From positions 3,366,265-3,430,264 of the forward strand of contig CAJINV010000007.1 in assembly GCA_905178155.1 (NCBI GenBank): a stretch of 64,000 bases of DNA, in the 5' to 3' direction. The translations under genes were made by a program, and so were the position numbers. Shown one piece after another: positions 271 through 23,700 of this stretch (its first letter is position 1; every line of letters begins with the position of its first letter). The stretch comes from Amoebophrya sp. A120. Taxonomy: Eukaryota; Protista; Dinoflagellata. A model generated the notes under the pieces. That model saw only the letters and a program-made list of their open reading frames with translations. It searched no databases and had not been told where the DNA came from.

Positions 271-1232
271 TTTACGCCCTGGCCAAAGCTTAACTTGATA
301 AAATCAATTTTTATGCTTGTACTTTTCGATGCGTGCTGACGGGATCTAACCGTAAAGCCGCAACTTAAAGATAAAGCCCAATCCTGTCCATTGAAGTGTT
401 TGGTAAGTCTTACCAAATACCTCGCGCAAAACTCGCTCGAGAAACAACTCCGCCGTGCCACGTCTTGACGTCTATCTATCCATAGCTACTTATTTTGGTA
501 AGAGGCCGCCCCGCTGTAGCCATTGATTTGGCCTCATCAAAAAAGCGGCTCTGCACTTACTGATATAGTTAAAAGGATAGAGCTACAAGGTCAAGTTGAA
601 GTTGTAAAAGTAAAGATAAAAAGTAAAGGAACTCGTTTCGCGAGCGTGCTTGCCAAAGAAGAATACTGACGTCACAGAAATTTGAAAATCGCATGGTCGG
701 GAGAAGCGTGGTTCGCGAATGCTAGTACTTCTTGATCCTACCCTCGAAGTAAAGCGTTCCGACGCTCGCATTGAAACCCCTGGTCAGCGGATCTTGGTGT
801 ATTTTTCAGTAGAGAGCATTGTCTTGCCTGATTTCCTCTGAATAAAAACCCATGATCGACGTTGGCCGCACGGTTTTTTAAATATCATCTCTCCACGACG
901 GCACACCCACACATACTTACTACAAGATCAAGTTTTAGAAGGTCCGTTTTGATAACAACACTTTTCCGGATCTGTTTCCTTCCTCGTTTGGATTTTCACG
1001 TCTTACGCTCGACGCGATCAAGTTTTGTGATCCGAAGTTCTGCGTTTTGTTTTGAATCCGTCTTCATGCAAGCCTGTAAAAGTGCAATTATTCTTTGTTG
1101 GGGTGTGTTTCGTCAATTCAGTATGGTAATGCTTTTCGTATGTTAATTGAAAGGAAAATGAAATGATTCAGGTTGATGAGGTCTCGTCCTTTTGCTTTTA
1201 GTAGAAGGTAACGTAGAGCAAAAGCGGACAGA

Positions 1233-4200
1233 ATGAGGACACCAATGTCGGCTGTTGGGCGAACAGCAAGTTTTTATGGTCTGATGGAGACAGTTCTCTA
1301 TCGATGTTTCCCCGCCTCGCGTGCCCTGCGACACTTGGTGGTGTTGTTCGCTTCGATTGGCTCTTTGGCGGTTGTGGTCATAGGAGCAGGCACGGCACTG
1401 ACCGCGCAACCTGATCATCTTCAGGCGCAGCTTTCTGGAACGTTTTCACAGACTTTAGAGCGGCTGGATGTCTCGCTTTTTTTCAACCCAGGAAGAAGTA
1501 GAACCGGCGGAGCTGCAAAGGGCAAAAACTACGTCAAGAGCAAAGATGAAAGAGGAGTCGCTTCTTCAAGCAACGGCTCAGCAGCTGAAGGTTCGACAGT
1601 AGTCCCCTCATTCTGCGGAAGCAACGAGGTCGCGGGGAAAATAGAAGAGTTCCTAGTGATCAGCTCAGTCGGAATCGGGTTTCCGAGGTGCGGAAAAGTT
1701 TTGGAATTTACAGAGGATGTCGCTTTGCAGGGCTACAGTTACGATGGTGCTGCAACGTTTCTGTACAGAAGCAAGAAGACTGCTGCCACTGCGTCCAAGT
1801 CTCACTCCAACTCCAAGAATGTACCAACGGTAGAACAACTTGCTCCTGAGACAGGCGAACCACCGATAGGCATTCGATTGAAGTTGCAGAAAAGACATCT
1901 TCACTACTGGGCGCAGGTGTTTGAAGGGTTCAAATTGCAGCCGCAGAATACAGAGGATGAAGACGACAAGGTGGAGTTACCCACGGGACGGTTTGTGAAA
2001 AAAGTTCGATTTTTGCAGGCGTCATCAACAGTTCCTTCGCCTTCGGGCGACGGGGGCGGGGGCCCGGCGACAAGGCTGGCGGAACAAGGTAGTTTTTCAT
2101 TGCAGACGAGATTCGACCACTTTCAGTTCCACGAACGGGAGCAAAGCCACGGTACAGCTGCGGTGAAGAAGATCATGGAGGACTTTTTCTACCGAGAACA
2201 AACACAGCAATTCAGTTGCTCTCAATATCTACATCACCACGCAGGATGGCTGAAGGTCGTGAATGGCTCTGAAAAAGATAATTTCTCGGCTATCGTAGTT
2301 GCGCCGAGACATTCTTGGTGCCCAAAGTGCTTACACAAAGACAAAGCATTCCGCAGTGTGGCGAAGCTGTGGAATCAGAAGAAGGAACATCAGCTGCATC
2401 CAGGAATGTTGCTGCGCGGCGAAGAAGCAGCAGCAGGGGTAGGAGTTTCGAGAGTTCATTTCGTGGCACTAGATACGCAGGCGCATAAGCGATTTTTCCG
2501 ACAGTATGATGCAGAACACAGAGGCTTTTCTGGAACAACAGTCCAGAAGAAGAAGGCTTCTACTTCCGATGACGACTGTCCACTCTTCGTTTGTCGTGCG
2601 GACGAGCCGCTCATGTATGAGACCCGGATCCCCCACGCCTACAAAATGTCGGACATGGACCTCATGGCGGGGGCCATGTCGGCAGGAGTGAGTATGAACA
2701 ACCAACTCGCGGACGATAAACTCGAGCCGGATCTGGATCGCTTCCAAGAGGAATTGGGTTCCTTGACAAGTGCCTCTGTGGCGGATGAACTCTTCCAGGT
2801 TGTGTGGAGAGACCAGCAAAAATTTTTTGAAGATGGGAAAGGACTGAGAGCAGCGCTGGCACTGGCTCGGTCCTCCGACAGGGCAAGTCACGACATCCGC
2901 GCGAGCACTCTTGCTCGTGGTGGCGCGCCAGGGCACGTACCAGAGGCCTTTGTGGTTCTGTCGGTTTCCGAAGAGGACTTTAGTTCTATTCACACTGCTG
3001 GTCGTCCGTCTTCCGGCCGCTTATTATCATCTTCATCTTCATCTTCATCTCCAACAGTCGACGACCTCCTGCCTGATCCAAAAACGGCGATCTCCGCTGC
3101 GACTTTGCGCCACGACTTTTTGCAAAGGATCGCGGAAAAAAAGTTGACACAAAACAACGCGGTCGCGGATGCTTTTGTCCACCACGCAAGGTCGTTTCGG
3201 CGAACGGGAAAAGGCTTTGCGAAGTTCGTGGTTTGTGTTGCCTGTGCATTGAACGTCGGCCGTGAGGAGCCACCGTCTCCTGGTCTTGCGCCACCACTGC
3301 TGGTCTGGTATTTGGGTGAAAACCGCACCGATTCCTACTCGTTTTACGACAGAACTGAAAACTCAAGTTCACCTCCTTCATCGCCAGCTGCTTTTTTGCA
3401 AAAAACCACAGCACCCTTGCTCCGGAAGTACTCGTTTGGGATCAAGCGCGAGCTGGAGACGCAGTTTCGTCCACAACCACAACTACTGCAAGAGAAGAAC
3501 ACAACTGCTACAAGAACTACGCAGCAAAATAAATGGTACGCGGTTGTCTACTGGAACACCACGGCACTATTCGCAGCAGACGCGTCTCCGCAAGTAGAAA
3601 GTGTTAGCGTGACTGATGGCGGCGGGTTCTCCACAGCCTCTGCTGATTTCTTGCCTGTTGATACAACAAGGACAAACCACACCCAAACTCAGAACAGATT
3701 TTTCGCGGAAGCCGTGCGTCAGTTTCGCAACAATGTGCTCAATCTCGCAGTAGACCTCCGGCGCAAGGGATTGGCGTCTGAAGAAGCAGAGGAAATCACT
3801 TTCCTCCAATTTGAGCCCACTTGGAGCTACTATTTGAAGGACTTCGGGTTTCACAGAAAGCAGTATCCGCAAATCGCGTTCGGATTGCGGTCGTCACTGG
3901 ATGTTGGGAAGGGGAGGAGCTTCGTCTTTGAAGGATCAAACAGCAAAATAAAGGCCGACAACAGCAATACACGACGAGGCCAAAAGATGAAACAACTACC
4001 TTGCGCAATGAAAACAGCAAAAGCTGCTCTGACAAGTGAGAAAGAGCTTCGTTCGTTCGAAAAGTGCTTTTCGAAGAAGAAGCTGGAAAAATTTGTGACC
4101 CAAGTGTTCTCCGGGAAGGTCAGAGAAGCGCATGCCAGTGGTCCGGAAAAAGAAGATGGGGATCGAGTGTTGGAAGATCACCAGCCTGCAAGCGATGCAG

Positions 4201-6938
4201 CAACAGCATCGAGGAGTCCTCCTGCTGGAGCTGCACCAGAGGGGCAGAAGAAGGAATTAGCGTCACATGTCGCAGAGCAGACGAGCAGCGAAAATAAGCC
4301 ACAGACCACCTCCTCTCCGACAAGCACCACCGTTGGCGACTCCCCCACTGGCGCATTTCCTCGAACCCCTGTGAACGATTTGACCTGGAAATCTCTTTCG
4401 ACCCAACTGTTCAACAGCAAGGAGGCTGATCTGTCAGCGGCAACAGTCATCATCGAGCTCTACCATCGGGATCGGGATAGAAAGTTTGAGAGGGAGGCGA
4501 TTTACCACACGGCCGCGCTGGTCTTCGAGGAGTTGGAGAGGTTGGAGATAGGGAGCAAACCAACCGGGGCGACGTCGCAGATACTTGACGGCAGTGCGGT
4601 CGTACTCGGGAAGAAAAAGTCGAGTCTTCGTTTCTTCCGCTACGACATCAGCGAAAATTACGTCAGTCCGGAGATTTTCGGCGAGAAATACCATAAGCTA
4701 TTCGGGGAAACAAGTATCGGGAGGAAAACGGAAGCGACGGAGCAAGGGGCTGTGTTTTTGTTCCACGGAATTGAAAATACACCTGCAAGAACTGCTGGCG
4801 ATAGAAATACACTGACCACCGCCTCCAAAATAAATTCGCTGGCTTCACTTCGTCGCGGCCCCCCTGCTGTTTTTCCGCTTTCGTTTTCGGGGAAGGAGCC
4901 CAGAGCGCTGTTGGAAGGGTTGGTCAAGTGGATCCACAAGAAAACGACAACGTCCTCGTACCCAGCAACGGCATCAAGGGCTGCTTCAGCGAAAAATCAG
5001 CTTCGAGACGCGTTAGACCTCGTAAAGGATTTCGAACCTGAAATCCTTGCTCGGGCAAAAACGGCGGATGACAACGAAAGACGGCAAAAGAAAGAAAAAC
5101 AAGCGGCGATTGATAAGATGATGAAAACGCTGAAGCAAGAAAAGGGCTTGTACGACATCCGAGACAGTGCCTTCATGTCAGCGGCGAGCGGAAATGCAAA
5201 TGGTGCAGGAAGTGCTACTGGAGGAAGCGGAGGAGAACCAACTGAAACCAAAGCGCCCCCGCTGAAACAGTTCCGCGACCGTGGGGGAGTGAAGGACGAT
5301 AAAAAAGGAAAAAAGATGAAACCGAAAAAAGCGAGGAAACAAGGACCGACAAAACGCTCAAAGGAGCTGAGAGCCCGAGCTGCAGCTGCGGAACGGCGTG
5401 CAGAAGAAGCGATAGAGAAGCAGAAGAAGGGGAGGGAAGAAAAGCTGCAAAGACGCAAGGAGGTTGTAGCTTCGCCTTCGGCGGCTGCTCGTCATACTGT
5501 TCCATCTGCACCGAAGATCATGAAGAAAGATCATGTCGCTCCAGAAGAGATGATCCACACAGTTTCCTGGGGGCAGACGAAAGACACGTTGCACCTCACC
5601 CTGCACTTCTCTTCCAATTTCAAGTCCTGTGTGACAGAGCACCTTCTTAAACAGGGCGAGAAGAATAAGAACACGAACCCGCGCAAGTTTTTCGACGCTG
5701 TCACCGTGAAGATTGCGGAAGAGCAAGATGCTGTTGTAATAGAAGCGGAGTTAGACGACGACGAGGACGAGCAGGCAAGCGCAGCATCAGTTTCATCCCG
5801 GACCACGACTTTGTCTTGCGCTGGCAACAACATGACGCCTGTGGCCTTCCGCACGACGACCCGTCTCAACCTCCGAGAATTTGTCCGGAAAGAGACCCTC
5901 GAGCTTGCGTTTCAGGGCCAACAGACGAGAGACGCAACAGCTTCCACGTCAGTGACTGCACCAACCGCCACCGTCGAAGCGCAAGCGATTCTGACAGTGC
6001 GAAAGAAGATTCCGCACCGGTGGGACCGTTTGTTGGACACTTGCAGTGCGAAAAAGGGCAAGGCGTTTTTCGAAACAGCATGCAAGACTACAAGCTCCTT
6101 CCAGCGCCAGCACTCAGAAAAAAACTATAGGAGCAGTTCAACATCAATGCCTTTCCGGTTGAAAAAGGATTGGGTAAAGGAGGACCCGAATTTGGAGGAG
6201 GAGGAAGATGTGGAGCTCCCCAAATGCAAAGATTTGAAACCAATCACCGGGTCGCAGCTGGAGCTAATTTTCGAAAGAGGAAGCGCTGATCATGTTGCGA
6301 GGTCACAAATTTCAATTGCTGTTGCATGTCTTTTCGTAGGCGCATGGTTCTATGGTGAATGAGACGCTACGCCGCACGTCATCTGGTGCAGCAATTTGTG
6401 ACTGTGACACATTCATATTGCGAAAATTCAATTTGAAATAGAAACTCTTCTACAGGCCCTCAATCGCGTCGACGACAGCATTGCAGCCAAGCTCAAACGA
6501 GACAAGTTCCGAAAAATCCAGCGCCGTCTTCCCCCGCATGCTCGTTCTGTTAGTCCGTCACCCCTGGTGCCGTGCCTGTGAGGAAAAGGACCGGGAAATC
6601 GTGAACTTCGTGAAATGGAAATCCAGCGAACTGCCGGCCAATTTGGTGAAGTTCGCGGTCCTTGACGCCAGGGAGTACAAAAATGTGGCAAGTCGCTTTT
6701 TGCAGGACCATTCTGCTGCGTCCGCGGATGAAAATTTCAGCGGCGGAAATCTTCCCGTTCTTTCTGCCTGCGACGCCACCTGCCCTCTGCACGTCTTCAA
6801 GCGTGAGGAGGGGCTGGATAAGTTTTACGTCCTACCGGCGAAGAAGTGGCACGAGGAGTACTTGCTGGATATGTACCAGTATGCGGTGCCGCTCGTGACT
6901 CTGTTCAACCAGGAACTAAAGCAAGACGCTGAAGAAAA
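1233..6938 (+). CDS. 5' part of a large secretory-pathway thioredoxin/PDI-like protein with a CS(p23)-like domain (exons 1233-6301 and 6456-6938), interrupted by the retroelement
   Basis: 1709-aa ORF with an N-terminal hydrophobic segment and CS-like motifs (SWGQTKDTLHL...KKIPHRWDRL...KDW). Phase-2 GT-AG intron 6302-6455 joins an exon with the thioredoxin motif PWCRAC. The frame continues at 21205 after the element. Confidence 0.75.
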
Positions 6939-7058
6939 TTATGAGATCTAAGGTTTTCGTAAGGAAATAGTTGATCGTCAATTGTGGGAGTTGTCTATAG
7001 TCGGTTTCGTATCCGGGGCTGTGAGCATCCGGTCACCACACTCACACTCTGTTGAAAA
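6939..7058 (+). repeat. Split direct repeat A1 (120 bp)
   Basis: Matches 20751-20870 with 1 mismatch. Confidence 0.95.
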
Positions 7059-7389
7059 GCGACTTTCACGTTCGCCCTTCGGCTTTTGCCTTCGGCATTG
7101 TGGCAGCTCCTTTTCGCGTGTTTGGTCAGCAAACACTGCTCCGACTCGCCTCTCGTCGTCCCGGTTTCTTCACTTGTATGCTTGTTGATTGCGATGTCGT
7201 TGGGCGTTAGCATGTCCGCTGCGCACACACGACAGGGCAGTCGCTGGTGACAGTGCCAGCACCTCTCGCTCAGTTGTTGGACAGAGTACCTCATTGGTGG
7301 TAGCAGCACGTATGCATGTGAAGTCGTGTCCCGAACACACTTGGCGTAAGGCTGCCGCATGTATGTGTTCTATGGCTCTTGGCTAAGAC

Positions 7390-8188
7390 ATGGCATGCTG
7401 CGTGTTGATCTTGTCATCACACATGTTCACAAGGTTAGACATTCGTACTGCTTACCGGGATCATACGATGTCTGTTGCAAGAGCGAAAAAAGATCTTTTA
7501 GAGCTCTTACAGTTTTGCCGTGCGTCAGAGACAACAGTAATACGAGTCTGGTCGTCCAACAAGATGGTCGTCTCTCTGTCCGCAGCGGATCTTCCGCAGT
7601 TGCAACGCATTATGTCTGCTTGCTCTAACGACGTCTCGCTACACACCCCTGTGTGGTGTGCGCTGGTGTACGGCAGCCGCGCCCTGGAGTCGGTGGCCAA
7701 CATTGTGGAATCGCACGCTTTGCGCATGCAAGCAGCAGGTCCGAAGGTGGTCAACGAAGCGAATAATGACCCGATGACCACGGTTGCCGCCGTGGAGGCC
7801 ATGCGCCGCACAATTACTGAGTCTCACGACCTGACGGTGAGCACTTTGATGGTATGTTTTTTTCCTTTTGCGATACGCATGACTGCATGACGCTCGATGA
7901 TGCTGCATGATACAACCCATCAAATTGTCTCAGGAATCGGCGCAGACGGTGCTGCCGGGGACGAAACCCTGCGCCAAATTCAAGCAAATGCTCTGGGAAA
8001 TTCCAGTGGTGATCCCGCCGCAGTTCGCGGCCGCCAAGGCCTGGAGTCCCAAATTCAAGGAATGGGTCCACGGCACAGCCCCGATCCAGCAGACTGGTTT
8101 GGTGCGCCTGTTGATGGACCGCAACGTGGCGAAAATGTTCGAAGACGCGAGTGCTAGTGTTAGCACTACGAGTACTTCCGCAAGCTAA
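7390..8188 (+). CDS. Element accessory gene 1, unknown function (exons 7390-7851 and 7934-8188; ~238 aa; start uncertain)
   Basis: ORFs 7390 and 7907 are joined in phase 0 by GTATGT...CTCAG intron 7852-7933. Confidence 0.6.
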
Positions 8189-8436
8189 ATTTCCCACAGA
8201 TTCGTGTCGTTACAAGACGTATTTGTCTTTATGAATTAGACGAACCAGTCTAACTCTCAGGACAATTCCGAACACGAGTTCAACTATTTTGAAACTCTGA
8301 ACGCGAATTACTGGCACTACCATCTTGACCTTTCAACGTAATGGTGTTCGAGCTTTTCGTTTCTTTTGGTCGTGTTGTAGCTCACGCCGTTTCGCATAGA
8401 TTACTCTTGAGCCGCCGTGCAAGCCACAGCGAAATC

Positions 8437-11121
8437 ATGTCAAGATGCGTAATTTGTTACGACGACAGCGTGGTAGACGCTGGCAGGGAGCTATGGTGCA
8501 CAGAAGTCGCCTGTGCGAACAAGCACTGCATCTGCTCCACCTGCTACTCCAGCAAAGGAGGTGTCATCCTGATCGCCGAATTCGGAGCCTGGGGCCAGTC
8601 CACAAAGTGCGGCAAGTGCAAAGCATGTGACAGATCCAAGACAGTTGCGAACTCAGCAAAGGTAAAAGATAGAATCGACCAGCGAGCAGGAACTGCAGCC
8701 GTTACGGAGCAAGTCATCGCAGCTTTCCCTTGGTGCGCCCAATTCGCCGCTACGTCGGTAGAGAGAAAGGCGAAGTACTACGACATTCTGAAAAGGCCGC
8801 CGATACGCCGCTCCCAAAAGATTGAGAAAGATCAAGGAAAGTACATGATGAAGCTGCTCGGTCAGTGCCTGGCCAACACCAACCAAGCGGCTCAGGTACG
8901 CTTTTTTGCTTTGTAGCGCAACGGACTTTGATTGCCTAGTAAATACAGCATGACAAATTCTTCATTGTTATCACCACAGGACTTCATCGACAGCACAAAC
9001 ATGCAAGAGATTCCGAAGTGTTCGTGGAAGACGATGATTCTCCCGCCGGAGGGATCGCTGTTGGAACTCAAGCAATACTTGCAAACCTTGACTGACTTGT
9101 TTCCGTCCGAGGATTGGATCACTCTGGCCCGATATTTCTTGTGGCCCGTGACCTACTACGAAAAAAAGTCGGCCGCCCTGACCAAAAACTCCGTGGCCAA
9201 GAAGAGTTTGTCTTTGAATTACAATTATCAACTGTGCAGACATTTTCCTTTTCATGTTGCTCTCGTCTTGACACGTGATACGCAAGCAGATATCCATGCA
9301 GATCACCACATAACTCTCATGCGATTGTTTGCTAGGTAATCACAAAAATTACAAAAGCCAGGTATTTTCTCATCAAAGATTTTGCGGCCGCCCTCAAAAA
9401 GAAGTATCAGCCGGCCGATGGCTCGCAAATTTGCCGCCTAAAAGGCTGCCGATTTTTTTCTAATATTGTGGGCCCCACATTGTTCCGGCATGGCGCCCCC
9501 CTTGCTTCTTTTCGTCGTGGCCCCGCGAGTCTGGGGCCCCGAGGGTTCTGGAGGTAGTCCGGGCACGGGTTTTGTCGTCGGTAGTTTTTGCAGGTTTTGG
9601 AAGCTGGGGCGCTGGGGATTTGCGTTTTTAGCATTGTTTGGCGAAGATTGCCCGCCCCGGGGTCTCCAGGGCCCGGGGCGCATCCGGCCCGGGGTTGCCA
9701 AGGTTTGCGCCCCTGCGATGTTTGCGCCCCAGAAGGAAGGCAGCGCGATTGTTTTCCATTTGTCTCGGGCCGCACATCAATGGCCCCGGCCCGCCCGGCC
9801 GGGGTTCACGAGGGGCGCAGAAGTGGGGCGGGGGGGGGTCTAATTTGGGCTCTAATTTCGCGTCTAATTTGTTTCTAATTCCAGCATAGGGAATGTGGGG
9901 GGATTTGCAATGAAAAAAATTAGCCGTGATTTAGCCAGGAAATTAGGCGCGAAGTTAGTCGCTTGCCTTAGCATCGATTTAGGCAAGGAATTAGCCGGAG
10001 GCAAGAGGCGCCCCGCCCGGCCTGTTTCCGGCTAGGCGGTTGGTGTTGATCATTTTGCCGGGCGGCTTCCCGGCTTTTTGTGTGGGCGAATTGCCGCCAC
10101 CCCTAATCTTGCATCTCGCGCCTGACCCCCCCTCGGGGCCGCCTCCCTTCTGGGCCATTTTCTCTCTGGATGGGAAGAGCCCAGCGGCGTTCGGTATTTG
10201 GCCGCGAAGTTCTTGGCCCCGTTCGTTTTTGTTGTCCCGCCCAACGTGATTTCTGCCCGGTGGCCTTCGGGCTGGGTGTTGTCTTTGGCGGCATTGCCGC
10301 CACTTTCTTTTTTTTGTTTTCCTTCGTAACATTAGAAAAAAGATAGCAAGTTTTAAGCCTTGGAGAATGCCCGGGGTCGGCTGCCTGACAAGTACGTCGC
10401 GTCCGCGGTCGACGAGGCATTTTACAACCTCGAGTACGCCTGTGCAATGACGCAGGCGGCTTGCGATAATTTGTGCAAGCCCAGTATTATGCAGCGCATG
10501 ACGCAGATAGGCGGAAGCTTCATGTCGATGATCGCGGGAGGCGGCGGCAGGAACGCCTTCCCTGAGCTGGGACAGAACCCCACAGACAGCAACGCGATCC
10601 AGCAAAAGAGTCAGCAGCTGTACAACGAGATCAGCCGCATCATGACCGAGGCACCGCGCACCACCGCAGGAGCATACGCTGCGATGGAAACGGCGAAAGC
10701 CAAGAGCGACGCGATTCTGTCGCAGTGGATGCAGAAGACCCAGAGCTGTGTCAACTGCCTCATGGGCGGCAAGGGTCCAGGAAGCCACCATGTGGGAAAA
10801 AAGATGGGTTTGAAGGCCTGCTCAGACTCGAACAACACGCGCTACATCAAGTGCCCACGCCCGCAGTGCAACGGAGAAGCCCACTGGAACAAGAGCTGCC
10901 CGGTCGTCCTTGCAGGAAAGAACGGGGGTGGCAGCCAGCAGTTCGGTGGGAGCCAGCAGTTTGGTGGTAACCAAAATTTTCAAAAAGGTCTTGGTAGTAA
11001 TTTGCTCCGTCCGTTCAATGGAAATGGAGGTCAACCGTTTGCGAAAAGAACCAAAAACAACAATGGTGGAAAAGGGCGCAACATTTCTAACGTCACTACT
11101 TATGCCAACCCCTTCAACTGA
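8437..11121 (+). CDS. Gag-like protein with N-terminal C3HC4 RING finger and C-terminal Zn knuckle (exons 8437-8895, 8980-9205, 10358-11121; ~482 aa)
   Basis: CVIC-x18-C-x3-H-x2-CSTC-x21-CGKC RING pattern; CPRPQCNGEAHWNKSC knuckle followed by a Gly/Asn/Gln tail; GT-AG introns 8896-8979 (phase 0) and 9206-10357 (phase 1) keep the frame. Confidence 0.7.
9336..10357. other. GC-run-rich non-coding insert within the gag intron, with a central divergent CTAATT/AATTAG array; probable degenerate nested element
   Basis: Abrupt compositional shift to G/C and A/T homopolymer runs. CTA at 9840, 9852, 9864 and 9875, then TAG at 9921-9992 every 11-13 bp. Same design as 18260-19486, but no clear TIR/TSD. 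Confidence 0.5.
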
Positions 11122-11386
11122 CGAAGTAACCTGTTTCAATTTCTTTATCGATAAAAGAATACATGAGTCAAGGCAGATACAAGCGCCCCCTTTTCCATGG
11201 CGTCAATGTAGCTCGACGCCGACGGTGGCATGTTCTTTGAAGTTGTGTCACGCAGGAGAGATCATGGCAAGAGATTAGTGAGTCCTCACCTTTTCTTTTA
11301 TTTTCTTTCTTTCGTCTGTTGCCCGGTTCTTCCTGTTGTTGCGTCCGGAGTGCATTTTGGCACACACAGATCTTCCAGCAACCTCT

Positions 11387-13680
11387 ATGACAGCCTTAGT
11401 AGGTAGTCACTTCACGATGAGCAAATTAATTGCAAGTGATGCGATAAAAGACGCTCTTGGCCAAGAGGTCAGGCAGCGCGAGTTACACAAAATTGCTGAG
11501 CAAGCGGCGGTAGCAGCATCGCTGAAAGAATTAGCGAACGCTGAAAGGAAATCAAGCAAAAAGCCGATCGTCGCGCCACCACAAGCCGCACCTATCGCCC
11601 CCGCATCATCGAAGCGGAAAGCACCTGAGTACTACAGCGCTCTGATGGACGCGGTGGAGACAGAGTTAGTGTGTGTGGAGGACTGGCACGAGGAGGCTCT
11701 AGAGGATTTCAGCGCAATCGTGCCGTCGTCGGGATTCGTGACTGCCGCCTCCTCACCAGCGGCGGAGCATAAATTCGCGACAACGCTATTCGGAGTTACG
11801 GGAATACGCGAGCACATGGAATTACGGAAAGAGGCGCTGAAGAAACCGCTGGGCACACTAATGTGCATGAACGCCTGGGCAGATGTATCGCAGTGTAACT
11901 CCAGCGCATGCAATTCGTCGCAAGGAGCAGCAGCTGGCTCTGTGACGTCGTCGAGTTCAACTTCATCGAGTGCAACGTCGTCAAGCGACGCCACGTCCGA
12001 CTCCATCGCAATCATATCGAAACCGGGAAACATAGTGCTCACGACTCCCACGCCGTCGATAGCGAGTGTTTTACATTTTTACCAGCAAGCAAAAGGAAAA
12101 GCCGCAAAGAATTACACGCCAGTTTCGGAAGAAGGTCTCAAGATCGATTTTACAATAAAGGCCGCAAGCAGCGAGATGTTCGGTGCCTTCCCGCTTTCGG
12201 ACCAAGCAGCCCAGTTATTAGAATCGGCGACCGCGGACCACGCCAACTCCTCGATAACAGAGGGTACGTCGAGAAGCTACACATCGATCTTGTCGAAGGT
12301 GATCCCAGCCGTCGCGCGGGAATTAGGTTTCATTCTGTGGCCGATAACCACGGATGCCGAGGCAGCGCTGCTGTTCGTGACGTTCGCACATGTTCACTCG
12401 GTCCACAGCGCCTACAAGAATGAAGATTCGAATCGAATACGGTGGGGCGCTTTTTTACAATTGAGCGCGGCGATAAACGCCTTCAATTCCTCGAGAATCG
12501 AGTTAAGCGGCTACACCACGAAGAACAGAGGAGCTTTCTTCCAGAAGCTATGGAAAGGGTGCGTTTTATTTGTTTCTTGTCGCCAAAAGTTTGATGATGG
12601 TTTCTCTGAGCACAAATTGTTGGAACTTCGTCACGAGTCATCACATATTTCCACAACACAGGTTCAAAAAAGAAGCACACCACGGAGCCCCACTGGATGC
12701 GAAGTGGTGTCCGACGTCCACCGAGATGCTCGACGCCTACACGACCGAATGGGAGCATTGGCAGCGACACCACAAGCACATGGTAGACAGCGAAGGAGAT
12801 TTCCAGAAGAAAGTCTTGAGAAACATGTCGCGCAACGATATAGATCTAGTTTTACGACTTCAAAAATTAGCGATAGTTGTCGTAGCTTTCTTCTGTGTTA
12901 GACGGAGCGACGAGGTCAGACTGCTGCGGTTGCGTGATGTAACAATCACCGCGTCACCAGGGTCGGGGCCGCAGTGCGCAGTTTTCGTTTCTCAAGCAAA
13001 GAGCGACCAGCTCTCATTCGGCTCCCTCAGAAGCCTGGGTGCCAACGCATTTCACAAGAATGATAGCTGATTACCAGCGATTTGCCCGCGCCTTCTTTGA
13101 CATAGTACTAGGACGAAAAATGGCCCCCGCCGACGCCTTTTTCTTCGTCATAGGGAATGCGAACATTAAAACCAGGGGTGCGTTCAAATCTAGCAAAGAT
13201 GGTATTAGGAAAGACATCAAAGCCTTTTTCAGCTACGCCTTGCCAGGCACGGTCCCTGAAAAACCAATCTCGCTGCGCAAAGGGGGAGCAAAGCATTATA
13301 TCGAGCACGATGTCTCGCGACGTTTCGCTTATTATCAAGGCGGATGGAGGAACAGCTACTGTCTTGATGTGCACTACGCACCTATCTCGAGTATGGAACT
13401 AAGACAGATGGCAAACAGACACTCGTCCAAAAGCTTAGAAACCTATGCGAATATCGCAAGCCTGCGGGCACTTGACCGCGCCCACGCGATATATCTACAC
13501 GATGATGACGCGATCAAATTTTCGCGCGAGGTCGAGAAGGTGGCATGGGACAGAACCTCTTTAGAATCCTTCCAGGAGGAATGCCCCAGGCTTTTCTCTC
13601 ACGCCGCGTGCAGCTCTTGCGATGCGGCAGTGTACGGAAAAATTTTAGATTTTTTATCAAAATGCGACGAAGATTCATAA
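11387..13680 (+). CDS. Tyrosine recombinase of the retroelement (intron 12559-12661; frameshift near 13036-13039)
   Basis: Box I AFFCVRRSDEV, catalytic K in QAKSDQ, ISLRKGGA (HxxR box with H replaced), GGW and DVHYA nucleophile. The phase-2 GT-AG intron joins LWKG|FKKEAH. Confidence 0.85.
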
Positions 13681-13914
13681 GCGAAAATCTCACACCAAAC
13701 ATGTAAATCTCAGCCACGCAGGCTTCTCGCACTACGTGATATGTTGTCCTTGTTTGCAGCTACTGGCACAGAGCGTCAGCAGATCTGAGCGCAGGCGCGA
13801 CGTAGAGAGAAACGCAAGTGGTAGCACACGGTGCAAACCAGATCCAAAAACTCACTACCGCAAGCAAGCATTAGCCTAGCGTTAGCAGCTCAGCCTTAGT
13901 TTACAGTAGAAATA

Positions 13915-15030
13915 ATGGAACGACCGCTAGGGCATTTGTCAGGATGGCGCTTCTGGTTCTTTGTGACCAAGGTGACCATGCAGAAATGCTGGTTGCTCTT
14001 ACAGCGTCTCAGCACCATACCGCAGTTAATGGCACGCGCAGTCTACGATGACGATAGAATGCTCGTGGACCATTTCTTCCGCAATTTCCGGTCCGCACAG
14101 CACTGGACTTTCCTGGCCAAGTTCTATACGGCAACCATACTGCGCGTGATGGTATTTCTAGTTCGATTACATAATTTACATGCATCTTTGGGCGCAGCGA
14201 AAGCCTTTTCATTAACAAATTCTCATGATCAAAATTAACAAGGTTCCGTATATTCTGATCGAAATCGGCATCATCGACGGGCAATCGCTGATGTGCGCAT
14301 GCATTTCTTATGCAGTAGTCCAGCGGGCGGAATCTTGTCGGTATTTGTTGTTATTACCAAACTTCAGGGACAATTAATAGCAATCCACATATCCTTCTAG
14401 TACCGAGCGCAAAAAATGGACCTAGGAAATCTCGACTATTGCGAAAAACTGCCGTTGCTTCGGCAGGCAAAGTCGATGCGATCCATGATCGATGATTTGA
14501 GTACGAAGGAGCAGAACAATTCCACCTTTTCGCAAGTTGTCGCTTCTTATCGCTGGTGCATGCGCAAAACCCTCCCCAAAAATTGTGACGCCAATGAGTT
14601 ACGCAACACCTGCGCCGTGCTGTTGGACACGCTGGAGGCAATTTGTGCCAAACAGAAGTGTCAAGCGAAATTAGCGGAGGGGATGGCGTCTGCGATTGAT
14701 TCGCTGTACAGCCACCTGTCGGAGATCTGGAATTATCCGGCCCAGGACGAGGCGATGATGGGCCGCAAATGGGCGTCTGTGCTCCTCGCGCGCCAGTTCG
14801 CCCACACCGCAGTGCAGATCTATCGCACCTACCACAAGCAGTCCTCCGCCGACATCGCGAACTTCTACAACCACGAGAAAAAGAAGTACAAAGAAGCCCG
14901 CTTGAAGCAGTTCAACTTGCGAAAGGAAGGAAAGGCTCTGCATGATGAGAAGAAGGAGGAATCCAAGAAAGAAGACTTGCAGAAGCCGTCTGAGGATGAT
15001 AGCTCATACCCGTCTTCGGATTCTGACTAA
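13915..15030 (+). CDS. Element accessory gene 2, unknown helical protein (exons 13915-14151 and 14401-15030; ~288 aa)
   Basis: ORFs 13915 and 14416 are joined in phase 0 by GTATTT...TTCTAG intron 14152-14400; charged C-terminus. Confidence 0.6.
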
Positions 15031-15057
15031 ACAATTTTAAAAAATTTCTTCTTCAGT

Positions 15058-15432
15058 TGTCTCGGACGGATTGTCGGGTCGCAGATCGCAGTGCGCAACT
15101 TCGTTCAGACCAGCGGGCGACTAATCGCACGCGCCTTGGCTCGATGCCTGGAACTGCACCCGGAGCCGTATAGTTTTACCTTTCTTTCCCTTTCGCGCAA
15201 TGGCGCATGTTTTTTGTTTGCATCATGATGATATTGGCATGACGAAAATACTTTATACCACTTAGAACCAAATCACAATCACTCGATCAGGTTAGATGAC
15301 GACCTGCCACCGAGCAGACACACATCCTCATCGGAAGACGAGCGAGTGGATTCGTCATCGGGTGATGATTCTGATGCGGAGGTCGTGAACCCGCAAGAAG
15401 CCATTGATGCAGTCCACCAGCACCAAGACTGA
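15058..15432 (+). CDS. Possible further element exons (15058-15167 and 15291-15432), acidic peptide, no own ATG
   Basis: Open frame joined by phase-2 GT-AG intron 15168-15290; in the same frame as accessory gene 2 just past its TAA. Confidence 0.3.
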
Positions 15433-16001
15433 TGTGTGTCAGTCTCATCGTGGATTTCAAAAAAATTTGTTCATCTTGTAGAAACATTTGACTCAACAAG
15501 AACGGAAAATAGATAGACAAAAACACAGACGACAGAGGACCACGGCAGCAGGATTGTTCTTCTTTCGTTTTGATCACAATCTGTGCAAGAGCATCGGTTT
15601 TCAGTACTTTGCTGCGTCCTTTCCAATCGTCAGTGTCATTTTGATTGTCGTCGTCCGATCCCGCTACCGTCTATTCCAATAAGCTTCCCGCACAGTTTCA
15701 CAGATGTCATATACACATGTTTGGTTTGTAAGTGGGCGCAGGTGGCCTCACGAGCGAATATGTTACTTTCAGAAACTAGAGAGAATCGAGCGCAACTTCA
15801 TGTGCAACCTGAGGGGTTGCTCAGACGAGATTTTATGTGAAATACAATCAAACTGGCTACAAAAAAATGCGCACCTCCTCTCCACGTCCTCCGCGGACGC
15901 ACATGAAGGCCTAGCGGCAGCATGCGCAGACGCGAAATGTCATTTATCTAGGTTTCGGATTTTTGATCTGATTGAAAATGAGCGAAAAATGAGATAAAGA
16001 A

Positions 16002-19000
16002 ATGCGCTCGTCACCTCTCGTTATGTTTTGCGGGGTGCAAATAGGCCGCTCAGCAGCATTGCTGCGCGCACAAGATGCGCAGGACAAGAGAGCAACAAAA
16101 AGACACAAGACGCAGCACGCCTCCTTCTGCGGAGCCCAAATAGGAAAGCCACCAAAAGTAGCGGAGCCGGCACAAGAAATTCATCACTGGATAGCGCAAG
16201 AAAATGCGGCATCAATCATGAAAGATAAGCCGAGGCCATGCAAGAAGGATTCGCAGAAAGAATGCGACGCGTGCTGGGACGACCCCTCGCTGATCTTTCC
16301 GCAGGAAACAGTGGTGACATGGGGCAGCCACTTACCGCAGCCGGGAAAAGCGCCACGAAGCCATCAGTGCGACATCGACACCGTAGACCTGTCACGTCTG
16401 TTTACATGCGGGAATGAGTTCGGTGACCCTTTCAATTTCGCGCCGTGCTCCCCCTTCAAAAAAGAAGACTACGAGAAGGCGGGCGCACCTCTGACACGAG
16501 CAGCAGGCAGGAAACTGCTGCAAGACCAAGAGGGCCCGAGCGACAGGTGGCGCAAGGCCGAGGATGGCCAGGCGTTCGCGGGTCTAACGATAAACCCAGA
16601 AGAATGTGTACGGTTTGGACTACAGCCAGAAGTTTTGCTGAAAGCCTGCACGGGGATAAAGTTCCAACAAATCGCAGAGCACCTAGACCCGGTAGTATGC
16701 GAGAACTACCCGGCGGCCAAGCAGAGCCCGGAGGTCTACAGTAACGAGCTCAAGCGCTTCTTCGAGTGCAAAAAGATCATCCTGTACGATGTGAAATCAG
16801 AAAAGAACGACAAAGGCGAAAGTGTGGAAGTGTGCGACTACCCCAGCGACTTGACGCGCGTGCCAGGAAATCTGCTGTTCCAACGCGACGACAAGATCAG
16901 GGTAGTCAGCGACTACAGCAGCGAGTGGGCCCTGATAAGCCAGTCCATTTTTTCCACCGAAGTAAACTACAAGACCTACTGGGATATGTTTCTGCTGCTG
17001 AAGCCGAACTCCGTCGGGAGTGGTATCGACTTCATGGACTCCTTCGGCCACTGGTTGGCGCACGCACGTTTTCGCCGCATGCTTGGAATAAGTCTCGAAG
17101 GGACAGTACAAAAAGGAGGACATTTGTGCTGTCCTTTTGGCATCGGACCAGCACCGGGCGAAAGCGATTTCTTCGTGAAAGCATTTCTTGCTGCAGTGAA
17201 GAGAAACGGAGTATCGTCGCCAGCACTCGACTACGTAGACGACGTGAGATTTATAACCAGCCCGGTTGACGGCAAACCACACTTCGATAAAGCCAAGCTC
17301 GACCTCGGCCGAGCAGTGTACATACTTACCCGCATGGGCATCAAGATTCACCACAAGGAGTCGAAGCTAATACAGCCGTCGACAATTTTCCCCTGGCTGG
17401 GAAACGTTTTCAACACAGACCCGAGGTCGTGCAACATCATGCTCGAGCCCAAAAGGCGCAAGGAATACCTGCAAGCAGTGCGAGACTTCAAGCAGGCAGG
17501 CAGTAACAAAGAAGCGAAAGCCAGAGACGTAGCCAGCATCAAAGGAAAATTAGGTTCCTGCGCGCTCATCCACCCACGCGGGCCACTGGACGAGCTGAGC
17601 AAGTTGCTGGTAGCTTCAACAGCACCGAAGCAGTGGGCGAAGCTGAGCAGGCAGCTCAATCCGCCAGTTGAAATCTCGGACGCCGCTTTCGAAGACTTGG
17701 ATTTGTGGGAAGACCTGCTGTCGACCGACCACACAAGACAAATGCTCTTCAACGGCGAGCAGACCTTTATTTGGTCTCGTGAAGTCTTGGCCTTCGGAAA
17801 AGCCTTTTTCGCGTCGTTGGGGCCAGAGCTGTTTATCGGTGTTTACATGGACGCAGCAAAAGGCGACATCGAAAACTGCGAAGACCGAAGAAACAGAGGC
17901 TGGGGCGGCACCGTAGCGGACCACTATTTTCGCGGACTCTTCGATCGACGAAAAAGTGCCAGATACCGCCAGCATCAACGAGCTAGAGGCCTTGACAGTT
18001 CAGCACGTGCTAGACGCGGCCAGAGAGAAGTTAGGAGACGCATATTTTCACCAGAAAATAATCCTGATCAAAACCGACAATCCAACGGCAAAAAGAACCA
18101 CGAACAAGGGCTCCGCGGCAACACCGATTCTCAAGAACGTGACGAAAAGCTTGACATCCTTCGCTTCCAGCACAGGCACAGAAATAGTCGCAGCCAAGAT
18201 CGCGGGCGAAGTGAACATCATCGCCGACGCCCTGTCACGCCACGAAGAGCATTTATTTGTCAGTCAGAGAGCCCCCGGGCCGCGGGAGGCACTAAATCCC
18301 AGCTAATTTTTGCGGGATTTCCCCGAAGCCCATAGGTTGGGCGGTGGTTTTCTTCCCCGGGCGTTGAAGGCCCCCGGGCCCGCTGGGTTCCTCCCTTTTC
18401 CGCAGCTCCCGGGGACCCGGGTTTTTCGCAAAGCCCCCGCTGACCCGGCGTGCTTTTTTCAATGAAAAGGCATGGCGGGAATTAAAATTTAAAAATTCGG
18501 GCCGTTTGCAGGGGATTCGGAATTTCGAACGCCGCGGGGGCTTCTTTGGTATTTTCGTCCCCGGGTGGCCCCGAAGGTGGTGGGTAGCGCTCGCGGTCTG
18601 GCTTTCCTGGGGGCCCTCGGGCTTTCGGATTGGGCTGTGAAGACCCCAGCCGTGTGGCCAATGTTGAAATCCCTCCGCCCTATCATTGCTTCACTTTTTC
18701 GCAAAGCCATTGTCGTTTGGCTTTTCGAAAGCACCGCCAGGGTTCCCAGTTTTCTCGTGTTCTATTTTGGACTTCTAAATGTGCTCGCTGTTTTGTTTTC
18801 TATTTTTCTGCGGGATTCGCGTGTTCGGCAGCTGTCTTTTCATCTTCTATTTTTCGCGACACTGGAGATTTCCAAAGGAAATCCTCCAAAGCGCGAATTT
18901 AGAAGTTGAAAAACAGCCGCTCGAGCATGCGAATCCCGCAAAAAATAGAAAGCAAAATAGAAGCACGATTTAGAAACCAAAATAGAATACGATTTAGAGC

Positions 19001-20529
19001 CCCGATTTAGAACATGGAAATAGAATACGATTTAGAGCACGAAAATAGAATACGACTTAGAAGCAAAAATAGAACCCAAAAATAGAAACAAAAATAGAAC
19101 CAAAATTAGCCGGGGAATTAGCAGCGAAAATAGCCGCCCGCGGGGGCTGTTTCGTGTGGGTGTAACTGGGTGGGGTTTCCGATGGTTGATGTTGTTTTTC
19201 GGGCGGCTTTGGGATTTGGGATTTTGGCTTGTGGGAATTCGTCCTGTGTGAGATTGCCGCCCCTGCCATACTCCATGTGCAGAAGGTGGCCTGCTTCCCA
19301 TTGGGTGCTTTTTGTTTTCCTGAAGTTCCTTGCCTGATTGCTTTGGGATCTTATGTGGCGCAACTTGGGCGCTCGGTTTTCCGGGTTTGGGTCTTCACCC
19401 ATTGTCCCGGGTCTCGGGGTTTGAAAAAATCCCGCAGAAATTAGCTGGAAATTAGCGGCCGCCACCGCCCCGGGGTTTCTGGCTGATATTTGCGTTTAAA
19501 GATCCTTTTCCGGATAAAACTTTGCGCAAGCGCTCGTGGAGCATTGTGATGCGCGAGATACCGGGTTTGAATGTCGACTGTTTTGCAGATCACCACAACT
19601 GGCGTTTCCCGGAATACTACACTGCGCACAATCATCCGCTCGATAGCTTCGACGTGTTTTATAACAAACGTTCGTGGTGGTTCCCACCAATACGCCTTGC
19701 AATAGTAGCAGCGCGCTTCCTCGCCAACTTCCAAAAGATTCCAGTAGCTCAAAGACCACGCTTTGCGCTGATGCTGCCGATGATCAGCCCCATGTTCTAC
19801 GACCTAGCGTCCAACTTCGTGCAGTTCTGCACGTACAAAAAGGGTTCCAAGGTGTTTTGCGCAGCGCAGTGCCCACTCGTGTACGGAGCACACGAAGACT
19901 GGATGTTGTTGTTGTCTGTGCATCTACACGACTGGGGAAGAGACAGAGAAAAGACAGAAATAGGCGCGCAAGTTACAAAAATTTTACGCAGGCCTTACTT
20001 TCGTCAATTTCCCGAGCTCGCTAGGAGCAAGTTAAGAATTATGGATATTTGCTATGCGCGCGAGCGGTTTATAGTCCACAACACATGCTGCGTCCCGTGC
20101 AAGCCCAGCGGTTTGGCGGCACAGCTGTTTGCAAAATATCCGAAGGCAAACCGCTACGGGGAGCCGTTTTCTGCGAAACCACTAGGAGGATATGAAGTGA
20201 TAGGAAAAATTGTCAATATTTACGCTATGGTCTGGCCAGGAAAACCCGTCCTCAACAGAGTCCCACGACCATCAGACGTAGTACCGGTAGAAGCATTTAC
20301 AGCAGACGACTCAGCAGAAGCTCGTCTTTTTCGTTTCAAAAACGCGTTGCGCGACTTTATTTTGTCAATCATAGACGAGACAGAATCAGTAGCAATCCCG
20401 CTCAGAATTGGACAAGGCTCATGCGCAGGAGGACAAAAAGAATACTGCGCAGTGATCGCCAAAGCCATCGACGTCGCATTTCGAAACAATGTAGACGCCA
20501 GCATTTATGAGAAGCCGCGCGCTCTATAA
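16002..20529 (+). pseudogene. pol: reverse transcriptase - RNase H - DNA N6-adenine methyltransferase-like - macrodomain; disrupted by a 4-bp duplication (17941-17948) and a nested insertion (18260-19486)
   Basis: RT motifs GIDFMDSF, CPFG, YVDD, WLG. RNase H motifs YMDAA, INELEAL, KTDN, NIIADALSR. MT motifs VDCFAD...WFPP...LMLP. Macro motifs IVHNTCC...GLAAQLFAKYP...VAIPLRIGQGSCAGG. Confidence 0.85.
18260..19486. mobile_element. Nested non-autonomous TIR element (1,227 bp) with 6-bp TSD TATTTG
   Basis: Imperfect ~60-bp TIRs (TCAGTCAGA...CTAAATCCCAGCTAATTTTTGCGGGATTT vs AAATCCCGCAGAAATTAGCTGGAAATTAG...TCTGGCTGA). TATTTG at 18254-18259 and 19487-19492. Removal restores HLFAFKDPFPDKTLRKRSW in frame. 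Confidence 0.85.
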
Positions 20530-20570
20530 TTTCAAATCCACACACCTTGCCCTGGGATACTCTGGAATTA

Positions 20571-20750
20571 GCGCCCAAACTACACGTTTGTAGCATGTGC
20601 TCTGTTCTAGTCCTAGCTGGAAAACGCAGATCACTTCAAGATCAAGACCTCGTGGGTCATTCGGTCTAGATCGCGTGTGTGTGTGTCGGGTACTGAGCTT
20701 GTGCGGTCGCTCAGCAAAATAATTACGAAACCTTTGCTCTACGACAACAA
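20571..20750 (+). repeat. Split direct repeat B1 (180 bp)
   Basis: Matches 21025-21204 with 3 mismatches; directly abuts A2. Confidence 0.95.
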
Positions 20751-20870
20751 TTATGAGATCTAAGGTTTTCGTAAGGAAATAGTTGATCGTCAATTGTGGG
20801 AGTTGTCTATAGTCGGTTTCGTATCCGGGGCTGTGAGCATCCGGTCACCACACTCACATTCTGTTGAAAA
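20751..20870 (+). repeat. Split direct repeat A2 (120 bp)
   Basis: Copy of 6939-7058; B1|A2 reproduces the end-to-start (circle) junction. Confidence 0.95.
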
Positions 20871-21024
20871 CCCACCCACCCGCACCAAACTGTGTCGGCT
20901 CTGGGCAGTGTTCTATGAAACAATTCGGTCGTTTCGTTCATCACGAAAAGACTATAGATAGCTCCCACGATTTTTGTATAAATCGTTCAAGCCACTACCC
21001 GTTCACACCAGAGCATATCCATGC

Positions 21025-21204
21025 GCGCCCAAACTACACGTTTGTAGCATGTGCTCTGTTCTAGTCCTATCTGGAAAACACAGATCACTTCAAGATCAAG
21101 ACCTCGTGGGTCACTCGGTCTAGATCGCGTGTGTGTGTGTCGGGTACTGAGCTTGTGCGGTCGCTCAGCAAAATAATTACGAAACCTTTGCTCTACGACA
21201 ACAA
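21025..21204 (+). repeat. Split direct repeat B2 (180 bp), right end of the element
   Basis: Copy of 20571-20750, followed immediately by host coding sequence. Confidence 0.95.
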
Positions 21205-23700
21205 CTTTAATCGGGAAAAGGCGTTCCACCAGTGGCGAACCGCTTTTCACACTGGCATTGTGGCGTACTTCCCGCCCGGGGTGGTGGATCTGGATGAGAA
21301 GGATATCCAAGCAAATACAACCGACGTGAAAGCTCATGATATTGCAGCGCAGAATGGCACGGTGATTGAAGGGGGAAAGAACACCATCAATACAACAAGC
21401 AGCGCAACAAGAACGTCACCGCTGTGGGAGAAAAGCGCCAACACGATTTGGTTAGATTTCCTAACTACCGCTCGCGCGCTCCGCGGAAAAGCACTGTTCA
21501 GTGCGACGAACGACTTGCGGATGGTGCACAATGCCGCTGAAGGCAATGAAATGAATGCTGTTGCTGACGGAACGGCAACGGCATCAAGTCCTCGTGATTC
21601 AGTTTCATCATCGCACGATGAAACAAGTCGCCAAGTCCAAATCTACGTTTTCAAGTCGGCCGAGAACCGTGCGGTAAAGTACCCGACTCCGGAACAACTA
21701 ACCGCAGAGAAGCTGACCGAGTTCAGCAAAAGACTCGCAGTTCCGCTCGTCTCCAACTTTGATTTTCACTCCAGGCAACAGTTAGCAGAGTTGAAAATGC
21801 CCATTGGGCTCCTCTGGGTGCAGAATCAGGACGAAAACATTGATACAGCTCTTGCCAAACAGGAACTGGAGCGGAAAGGAGGGTCAGCAAAGAAAGTCAA
21901 TGACAACTACACCGGAGCTGCATCGTCCGGCAGCGTTTCGGAAGATGACAGTGGCGAAGAGATGAACTACCGCAGCGAGGAAGAGGATGTAGATGAAACT
22001 ACCACCGCCGTTGAGATCGTCGAGAAACTGGCGCGGAAATTCGAGGGCAAGATGGCATTCGCGAAGTTAAATGTGACGACCGAGGGCATTTACATGCGGG
22101 AATTCGGGTTTCACCCGGCGAGATCCCTTCCAGCGTTCGGAATTGTCAACACCGTCGACGCGCTGACAGGCGGTGCTCCAGGAGGAATGCAAGGAATGCC
22201 GGGGTTGGAAGGTACAGCCTGATTGCTCGTGTAGTGGTCCGGCGGTTGTACTTACCTCCGCTTTTCCTTTTTTCGTCTCTTTGACAGCTTGCACTACAAA
22301 ACTTAATTTTTTGTCTAAGAAGCAAGCTTGCACTACACTGTCTCTTTGACAGTGAGATCAAGATGTTTTACTATTCATAAGGAGGGAACGAAGGGGACCT
22401 ACAGGCACGAATCTTGTTCGAAATCTACATCTCACAAGGCACGAAGTCCTCGCTCGCTTTGGACGGCGGAGCCCGCTACGCGTTTGCAGAACGGGTGACA
22501 CAGGGTTCGGAACAGAAGTTGGCCCAGTTCGTCGACACCTACTTGCACGACCAGCAGAAGCTCTCAAAGGCTTTTCGCACGAACGAGCTGTCGGCGAAGT
22601 ACGAATGGCTGGCGAATCGGGGACAGGTCCAGGAAACGGTGTGGAGCCGACTGTGGGAAGATTTGGGATGGTGGAGCGAAACCAAAAAAGACTCTCATGT
22701 CCTCTTCGAGCTCTACGCGCCGAACCGTCCGCAACACTCTACCCACATGCTGCTGGTGAATTTGCTTGCTGTCGCGCTGAAGAAGGTGCAAGGGTTCAAA
22801 ATTGTGCGAATGGACACGGAAAACAATCACGTGCCAGAGGAATTCAAGAAGCCTTCTTTCGCATCAAGTTCATCTAGCAAGAATAAGCATCTGAGGTCTG
22901 AGAAACAGCACAACTCAGCGCCCGGAGCAAACATTTTCGACACCGCGAGCGGACAGGCTCCTGCAGCAACGGAATACTTCTTCCTCGATACGAAGGCAAG
23001 GAAGGTTACACGCTTCAAGAGTTTCCAAAGCGCGAAATTGCTCGATTTGCCGGTGAAGTTATTGCAGTTCGTGAAAACGCAGCTGGAGAAGGGAGTAGAA
23101 GGCTTGGAAAGAACTGCACATGTGCAACAGGATGAAACTGCAGAGACGGAAGATGAAAAAGAGACGAGCAAGATCGCTGAAATAAACGAAGAACCGTCAA
23201 AATTTGCGAGTGGAAATGCTGCTCATGTTGCTCGTGCGCAAGTAGAGGAACTTTCCACCGCAGATTACGAGGAACGTGAGGAGGCGGACGAGCACCGCGA
23301 GGTGGACGAGCCACGGTTACTGACATCAAACCCCATGATGATCGGGTCTACTTCAGGGGCTGTAGCTATGCTATCTCCTTCCTCTCTTTTTTCTGAACAC
23401 GGCCACTTCAAACCCGAGCCCCTCCCGGTCGTCTTCAGTGCCGCAAAAGAGTTTGTGAAACGGGAAGTCCGCGAGAAGGTGCGGAAAATGAAGCGGATCG
23501 AGCGGGAGCGAGAGAAGAAACACCACGAAGCCTGGGCGCAGTACGAAATCGAGGAGTTTTTACGGTACGAGAGGAAAGGATACGACTTACACGGAGCCGC
23601 TGGGATGGCCGGGTCGTTGGGGAATCTAGCTGCAGGAATGGGTGGGGGGAAAAATGGAGGTGGTGGTGGCGGGGGCGGCGGGAGAAAATCTAAAGATTGA
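21205..23700 (+). CDS. 3' part of the thioredoxin/PDI-like host gene (exons 21205-22211 and 22382-23700)
   Basis: PDI b'-like segments (EKLARKFEGKMAFAKLN...REFG...LPAFGI; LFELYAP...IVRMDTENNHVP) resemble repeats in the 5' part. Phase-1 GT-AG intron 22212-22381. Confidence 0.75.

Follow-up and report, generated by a model that had tools for sequence, protein, structure and literature searches.

The PAT-like retrotransposons Pat1, Toc3 and Kangaroo, in the portions of PMC4157794 and PMC6681497 that deal with them, combine repeats in the order A1...B1A2B2 with a zinc-finger-like Gag, a tyrosine recombinase (YR), a reverse transcriptase and RNase H (RT/RH) and a putative methyltransferase (MT), and make no target duplication. 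Corresponding features, with YR and MT as putative ones, were found in an element of the dinoflagellate Amoebophrya sp. A120, lying in a window of 64,000 nt (assembly GCA_905178155.1, contig CAJINV010000007.1, positions 3,366,265 to 3,430,264 of the forward strand), to which all coordinates below refer. It differs from the PAT-like elements in the position of YR, upstream of pol and on its strand, in at least three extra open reading frames (ORFs), in a macro-like domain after the MT and in its length of 14 kb. It also has predicted introns in gag and YR, and its RT is too divergent for Pfam or sequence search. Here the candidate introns are assessed, with the ways in which they may have been kept by a retroelement.

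VIPER and TATE of kinetoplastids have the order gag-YR-RT, as here. They also share split direct repeats and a host with leader trans-splicing (PMC6681497, PMC7192593); VIPER, as far as these sources describe it, is without an MT domain, in contrast to the putative MT-like motifs of the present element. SymbioDIRS of Symbiodinium, described in part in PMC5890265, comes from the dinoflagellate lineage too and resembles this element in its A-coding-B-A-B repeats and divergent RT; the order of YR and Pol is shuffled between its families. Its Pol carries a cytosine DNA methyltransferase and it was annotated as intronless in that account, whereas an adenine-MT-like motif and introns are predicted here. 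Ngaro is without an MT domain, while putative MT-like motifs were seen by eye here. Cryptons have no RT, and their terminal repeats are only 4-6 bp long; with an RT and repeats of 122 and 180 nt, this element falls outside the Crypton definition.

In 2004 Goodwin and Poulter reportedly described spliceosomal introns within the ORFs of some DIRS1 and Ngaro elements. Compared with those, the host group is another one here, and retention through a cycle of replication can be argued by setting the identity of the repeats beside the divergence of the intron. If those introns are as described, the first-pass annotation was too narrow in naming only Penelope-like elements as a recognised exception to the purging of introns by passage through spliced RNA. 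The other part of that statement stood: Penelope-like elements do keep introns after retrotransposition, as here, in the account of PMC8557442, which gives them a GIY-YIG endonuclease, pseudo-LTRs (long terminal repeats) and introns mostly in the 5′ untranslated region. The term “intron” was absent from PMC3783388, PMC6681497, PMC3266345 and PMC4157794 in a term search only, and no statement of introns in YR retrotransposons was found in the open literature that was searched, which does not show the matter to be unpublished.

A well-supported intron in the putative recombinase gene

DNA contigs from runs X1 and X2, of one sample that may be the one the window came from, contained this copy and at least one sister copy. 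An intron inside the YR gene had been proposed at 12559-12661, and comparison of the copies bore it out: GT and AG were both intact in the sister contig, where the intron was 102 nt long against 103 nt here. Among the substitutions listed, 14 of 103 intron positions were changed and 26 of 679 exon positions (Fisher p=2e-4); these are 40 of the 42 substitutions over 12240-13060, and p=4e-4 if the remaining two are exonic. Synonymous changes were 10 of 11 before the intron in one frame and 9 of 15 after it in another frame, and the ratio of non-synonymous to synonymous change (pN/pS) over the two exons was 0.11 between copies. By this measure the YR exons are under purifying selection.

A programmed frameshift in place of the intron was rejected: the sister intron contains a stop in the upstream frame, and with lengths of 102 and 103 nt a single frameshift cannot explain both copies. 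Independent gain of the intron after the last round of copying was rejected. In a third, more distant contig the alignment begins at the CAG at 12659, and the sequence that precedes it there is AT-rich and unrelated, the pattern expected if the same intron position held a saturated sequence. With GT-AG ends, a neutral interior and a frame restored on removal, the prediction of 12559-12661 as an intron is well supported.

Likely retention of the intron through reverse transcription

The reading of the element as a retroelement was supported. In the accepted model, as outlined in PMC6681497, every round of reverse transcription leaves the split repeats identical. Here the terminal repeats differ at 4 of 302 positions. 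This compares with 14 of 103 in the YR intron between copies (p=3e-6) and, for four sister contigs taken together, with 111 of 2033 (p=9e-4). The repeats are thus far closer than the copies, which argues that this lineage was reverse-transcribed after its split from the sister, with the YR intron in place. Judging from these comparisons, such a round of copying, with the intron kept, is likely. No DNA joint removing a short intron was seen in X1 over 1200-20560 or in X1/X2 over 12240-13060. The comparison of genomic copies that had been suggested as a check gave no intronless form, within its limit of about three variants on short contigs.

An unspliced full-length RNA template, already suggested in the first-pass annotation, is the likeliest explanation of a YR intron common to copies when the repeats are near-identical. 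We think it probable, with some reserve, that the element keeps the YR intron and probably three others by way of unspliced full-length RNA and uses spliced messages for protein. Uncommon as such copying is, it is not without precedent among elements of this class. By the known YR cycle, a full-length RNA from repeat A1 to B2 would be copied into a circle, the repeats would be made identical during copying, and the recombinase would insert the circle at the shared AA. Proteins would be made from separately spliced messages, and the full-length RNA would escape splicing through early capture by Gag. A multi-gene 12-kb template would also need such capture if it is to be spared 3′-end cleavage and leader trans-splicing between its genes. 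With tagged DIRS-1, some unspliced cDNA was obtained when the intron was near the 5′ end, for which the authors gave competition between splicing and retrotransposition factors as the reason (PMC7192593, in the part on this assay).

A wider form of this account, in which a six-gene operon-like element has a full-length RNA that escapes both splicing and trans-splicing, the same transcript is cut into messages and the kilobase introners are spliced without standard ends, seems to us quite unlikely. On the first-pass suggestion that leader trans-splicing may resolve the transcript into single-gene messages, Farhat et al. reported a truncated spliced leader on 18-38% of transcripts and, in the portion of PMC7789003 drawn on here, no evidence of polycistronic mRNA.

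Other candidate introns

All six of the intervals proposed at first begin with GT and end with AG, and each joins its flanks in frame in this copy. Phase is not evidence for introns here, because every gap admits 3 to 24 other stop-free GT..AG pairs that suit it just as well (12, 12, 24, 3 and 14 for the five short gaps; 10 for the gag gap). The GC content of the five short candidates was 0.37-0.43, and that of six host introns in the window, inferred by eye with only one anchored by a conserved motif (SNF2 helicase), was 0.38-0.44; the donors and acceptors of the two groups were similar. In a Markov model trained on host ORFs, the five candidates scored as non-coding and their flanks as coding-like, those of 7852-7933 and 8896-8979 in the joining frames.

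The sister keeps GT and AG at 7852-7933, with no excess of changes (4/82 vs 12/370). Synonymous codons in exon 2 of ORF0 numbered 4 of 8 in the first-pass frame and 3 of 8 in the alternative frame. The candidate at 8896-8979 lies outside the reach of the gag homologues; in the following gag exon (8980-9205), 1 of 4 codons was synonymous and the others non-synonymous, among the 40 of 702 substitutions listed.

The interval 9206-10357, read at first as one 1152-nt intron, had to be given up: in the sister, 9399 is followed directly by 10388, and the base at the donor 9206 is A, not G. It was replaced by a probable short intron, 45 coding bases and a nested 982-nt insert with terminal inverted repeats. 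Block 9363-9404, within the intron proposed earlier, matched the Gag homologue P0003 (shuffle p=0.0004), a gene model of Amoebophrya sp. A25. When gag splice models were aligned to P0003, 9234-9361 scored 121, the best of 10, and 9206-10357 scored 82. Since the match to P0003 continues on either side of 9234-9361, some 130 nt that include a stop would have to be taken out between them. The sister contig has a 1-nt deletion at 9250, inside this short intron.

Within 14152-14400 there were four sister indels (among 12 of 21 indels listed). At 14410, past the acceptor but before the ATG at 14416, the sister also has one additional A; it breaks the fused frame and leaves the ATG, so 14152-14400 may be a gene boundary. 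The intervals 7852-7933, 8896-8979 and 9234-9361 are probable introns; 14152-14400 and 15168-15290 are doubtful. Where at least five introns had been claimed, we thus count one with good support, three that are probable and two that are doubtful.

Alternative explanations

Several observations weigh against copying from unspliced RNA as the route by which the introns were kept. The completed DIRS-1 copies selected in the tagging assay had lost the marker intron (PMC7192593, same part), and gene conversion is another possible source of the likeness between the repeats. Divergence varies from one part of the element to another (3.5% in ORF0, 9% at 13527-13937), a hint of recombination between copies or of mixed sister copies. 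About three family variants are visible, on short contigs that cannot be phased, and contigs drop rare variants. The identities of YR, RNase H and MT rest on motifs, not profile matches. Even for the host gene, RNA runs X4-X6 yielded just 1, 0 and 0 reads, and none came from the contig runs X3 and X7, so that these runs say nothing for or against splicing; we infer splicing of all candidate introns from the DNA. If the element now moved as DNA, with the recombinase excising and reinserting a circle in the manner proposed for Cryptons (PMC3212892), its introns would never be exposed to splicing, which explains their retention directly and goes with the lack of target duplication. The split repeats, however, are far closer than the copies are to each other, so that DNA moves would need conversion as well. 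Both copies have retained the RT/RH ORF (sister contig 17328-17815 without gaps), and Cryptons, as far as PMC3212892 describes them, have neither RT nor long repeats. Near-identical split repeats beside an intron 14% diverged between copies make Crypton-like movement, the alternative offered in the first-pass annotation, a poor fit, and we regard it as very unlikely.

Copying of both spliced and unspliced RNA, with the intronless progeny dying out because introns hold needed signals (internal promoter, export, expression), is a less remote idea but still an unlikely one. Tagged DIRS-1 does make both spliced and unspliced cDNA (PMC7192593), Penelope introns overlap an internal promoter in the account of PMC8557442, and an element with six or more co-oriented ORFs would need internal signals. 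Against this, no intronless DNA form was found among the contigs, though copies were few, and the YR intron lies mid-gene and changes at a neutral rate (14%), unlike a conserved signal. It is also possible, if rather doubtful, that the short AT-rich stretches are for the most part gene boundaries, or spacers that hold leader-acceptor sites, and that only the YR intron is real. This suits 14152-14400 well, given the extra A of the sister at 14410, and possibly 15168-15290; an ATG in the downstream frame within 8896-8979 and the lack of excess divergence at 7852-7933 point the same way. The Gag homologue on both sides of 9234-9361, where some 130 nt with a stop have to be removed, speaks against it, as does the similarity of the candidate donors and acceptors to those of the six inferred host introns.

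Organization and proteins of the element

The features of the element are listed in Table 1. Two long repeat pairs came from a repeat search, in the order A1 ... B1 A2 (154 nt) B2, the layout of PAT-like, Ngaro and VIPER retrotransposons as given in PMC6681497 and PMC4157794. Host exon was found at both junctions, with only AA shared and no target-site duplication, and the empty site is in frame; the left junction was spanned by one 5951-nt DNA contig. This insertion pattern fits a tyrosine recombinase. A coding exon of a host gene with thioredoxin-like domains is split by the element (6442-6938 and 21205-23700 of the window), and a thioredoxin-like domain lies in the part of the gene downstream of it. 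ORF0, gag, YR, ORF X, ORF Y and pol all run on the plus strand.

Table 1. Coordinates of the element and its features in the window
Feature	Coordinates	Strand	Basis or remark
Whole YR retrotransposon (split direct repeats)	6939..21204	+	14,266 nt; junctions and empty-site reading
Split direct repeat A1	6937..7058	+	1 difference in 122 nt vs A2
ORF0, protein without assigned family, two predicted exons	7468..8188	+	coding model: frame 1, then frame 2
Probable GT-AG intron, 82 nt	7852..7933	+	GC 0.43, non-coding, in-frame stops
Gag-like gene, Cys-rich N-terminus, C-terminal Cys/His zinc-knuckle-like motif	8437..11121	+	homologues P0002, P0003
Probable GT-AG intron, 84 nt, two in-frame stops	8896..8979	+	GC 0.39, non-coding
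Probable short gag intron	9234..9361	+	best of 10 candidate boundaries; exact ends unproven
Nested 982-nt insert, TCAG...CTGA ends, 6-nt target duplication with one mismatch, introner-like or like a miniature inverted-repeat transposable element (MITE)	9407..10388	+	missing from sister contig
Putative tyrosine recombinase gene	11387..13680	+	motifs by eye; exon pN/pS 0.11 between copies
GT-AG intron within YR gene	12559..12661	+	common to three sequence variants of the family
ORF X, function unassigned	13915..14238	+	ORF list, coding model
Non-coding stretch, intron or gene boundary with acceptor-like AG	14152..14400	+	doubtful as coding intron
ORF Y, helical protein, function unassigned	14416..15030	+	ORF list, coding model
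Intron-like stretch without clear coding context, doubtful	15168..15290	+	upstream exon without in-frame ATG
Pol: RT, RNase H, putative Dam-like MT, macro-like domain	15993..20529	+	frameshift near 17945
Nested 1227-nt insert, TCAG...CTGA ends, 60-nt subterminal inverted repeat, 6-nt target duplication	18260..19486	+
Split direct repeat B1	20571..20750	+	3 differences in 180 nt vs B2
Split direct repeat A2, then 154-nt unique spacer	20749..20870	+	repeat search
Split direct repeat B2, right end of element	21025..21204	+	repeat search

Pfam, PHROG and PDB searches gave no meaningful match for the element proteins, RT, YR and MT included, and ORF0 matched no family in Pfam or PHROG. Neither the RT ORF nor the YR ORF brought up a homologue, and two metagenome scans found no relatives. 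Single-sequence fold predictions were of low confidence (predicted local distance difference test, pLDDT, 34 and 37). An antiholin match for ORF Y fell under its cut-off and was discarded.

The gene at 8437..11121 was labeled Gag from its position, and the label is putative. Its last exon was searched against 1.84 billion representatives; three proteins matched, two of them credibly (P0002 and P0003), and P0001, a frog mucin, was dropped as a low-complexity match. The Cys/His/Trp columns of the zinc-finger-like motif were invariant in all three Gag sequences. A profile search with Gag recovered only its own two members.

In the putative YR, catalytic-type motifs were picked out by eye, namely R, K, xxxR, W and Y; Ile stands where a His is usual. 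In the ESM Atlas the protein gave a lead to a QRICH1-tagged cluster (12% of members). The RT scored 0.94 to RVT_1 clusters there, with 182 shared features, and has a YVDD motif. RNase H, the Dam-like MT and the macro-like domain are putative, assigned by eye from motifs compared with their consensus. The MT-like stretch has DCFA and FPP motifs, seen by eye, and is in frame with RNase H at the sister joint. Behind it, at 20032-20526, lies the macro-domain-like stretch, recognized by eye only.

Nested inserts and state of this copy

The insert at 18260-19486 separates RNase H from MT and is missing from the sister contig (joint 18253-19487); a shorter variant, without 18508-18989, is present in contigs. 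The summed depth was 177 for the 9407-10388 insert and near 170 for both inserts; the host gene stood at 28, which hints that the inserts are present in many copies. The two inserts are likely to belong to one non-autonomous DNA transposon superfamily and would have arrived as DNA. They resemble the Amoebophrya introners described in PMC7789003 in having inverted ends and flanking direct repeats and in being repeated in the genome, but they are ~1 kb long with 6-nt duplications, compared with 3-5 nt in that description.

Host genes of the window also contain introner-like inserts, at 26309-26516, 52503-52656, 39082-39642, 44594-44899, 48428-48848 and 60297-60534. These fall into at least two repeated families; their ends are inverted and lack GT-AG, and they have short direct repeats. 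The SNF2-family helicase gene (51042-54552) has two canonical introns and one non-canonical introner.

The YR gene of this copy carries a frameshift, 4 extra nt at 13022 that are missing from the sister. The pol frameshift at ~17945 looks like a 4-nt duplication and that at 13022 is likewise a 4-nt insertion; they are possibly footprints of excised transposons. This copy, which carries both frameshifts and both nested inserts, is probably dead, or inactive unless complemented.

Implications

The close relatives of this element family in the large protein collections searched were two Gag-like proteins only. Anyone annotating repeats in these protists has to reckon with introns, and with nested introner-like inserts, in retroelement genes. 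Little is known of how YR retrotransposons select their template RNA, and a natural intron in the recombinase gene that is older than the last round of copying would be a built-in marker for that choice.

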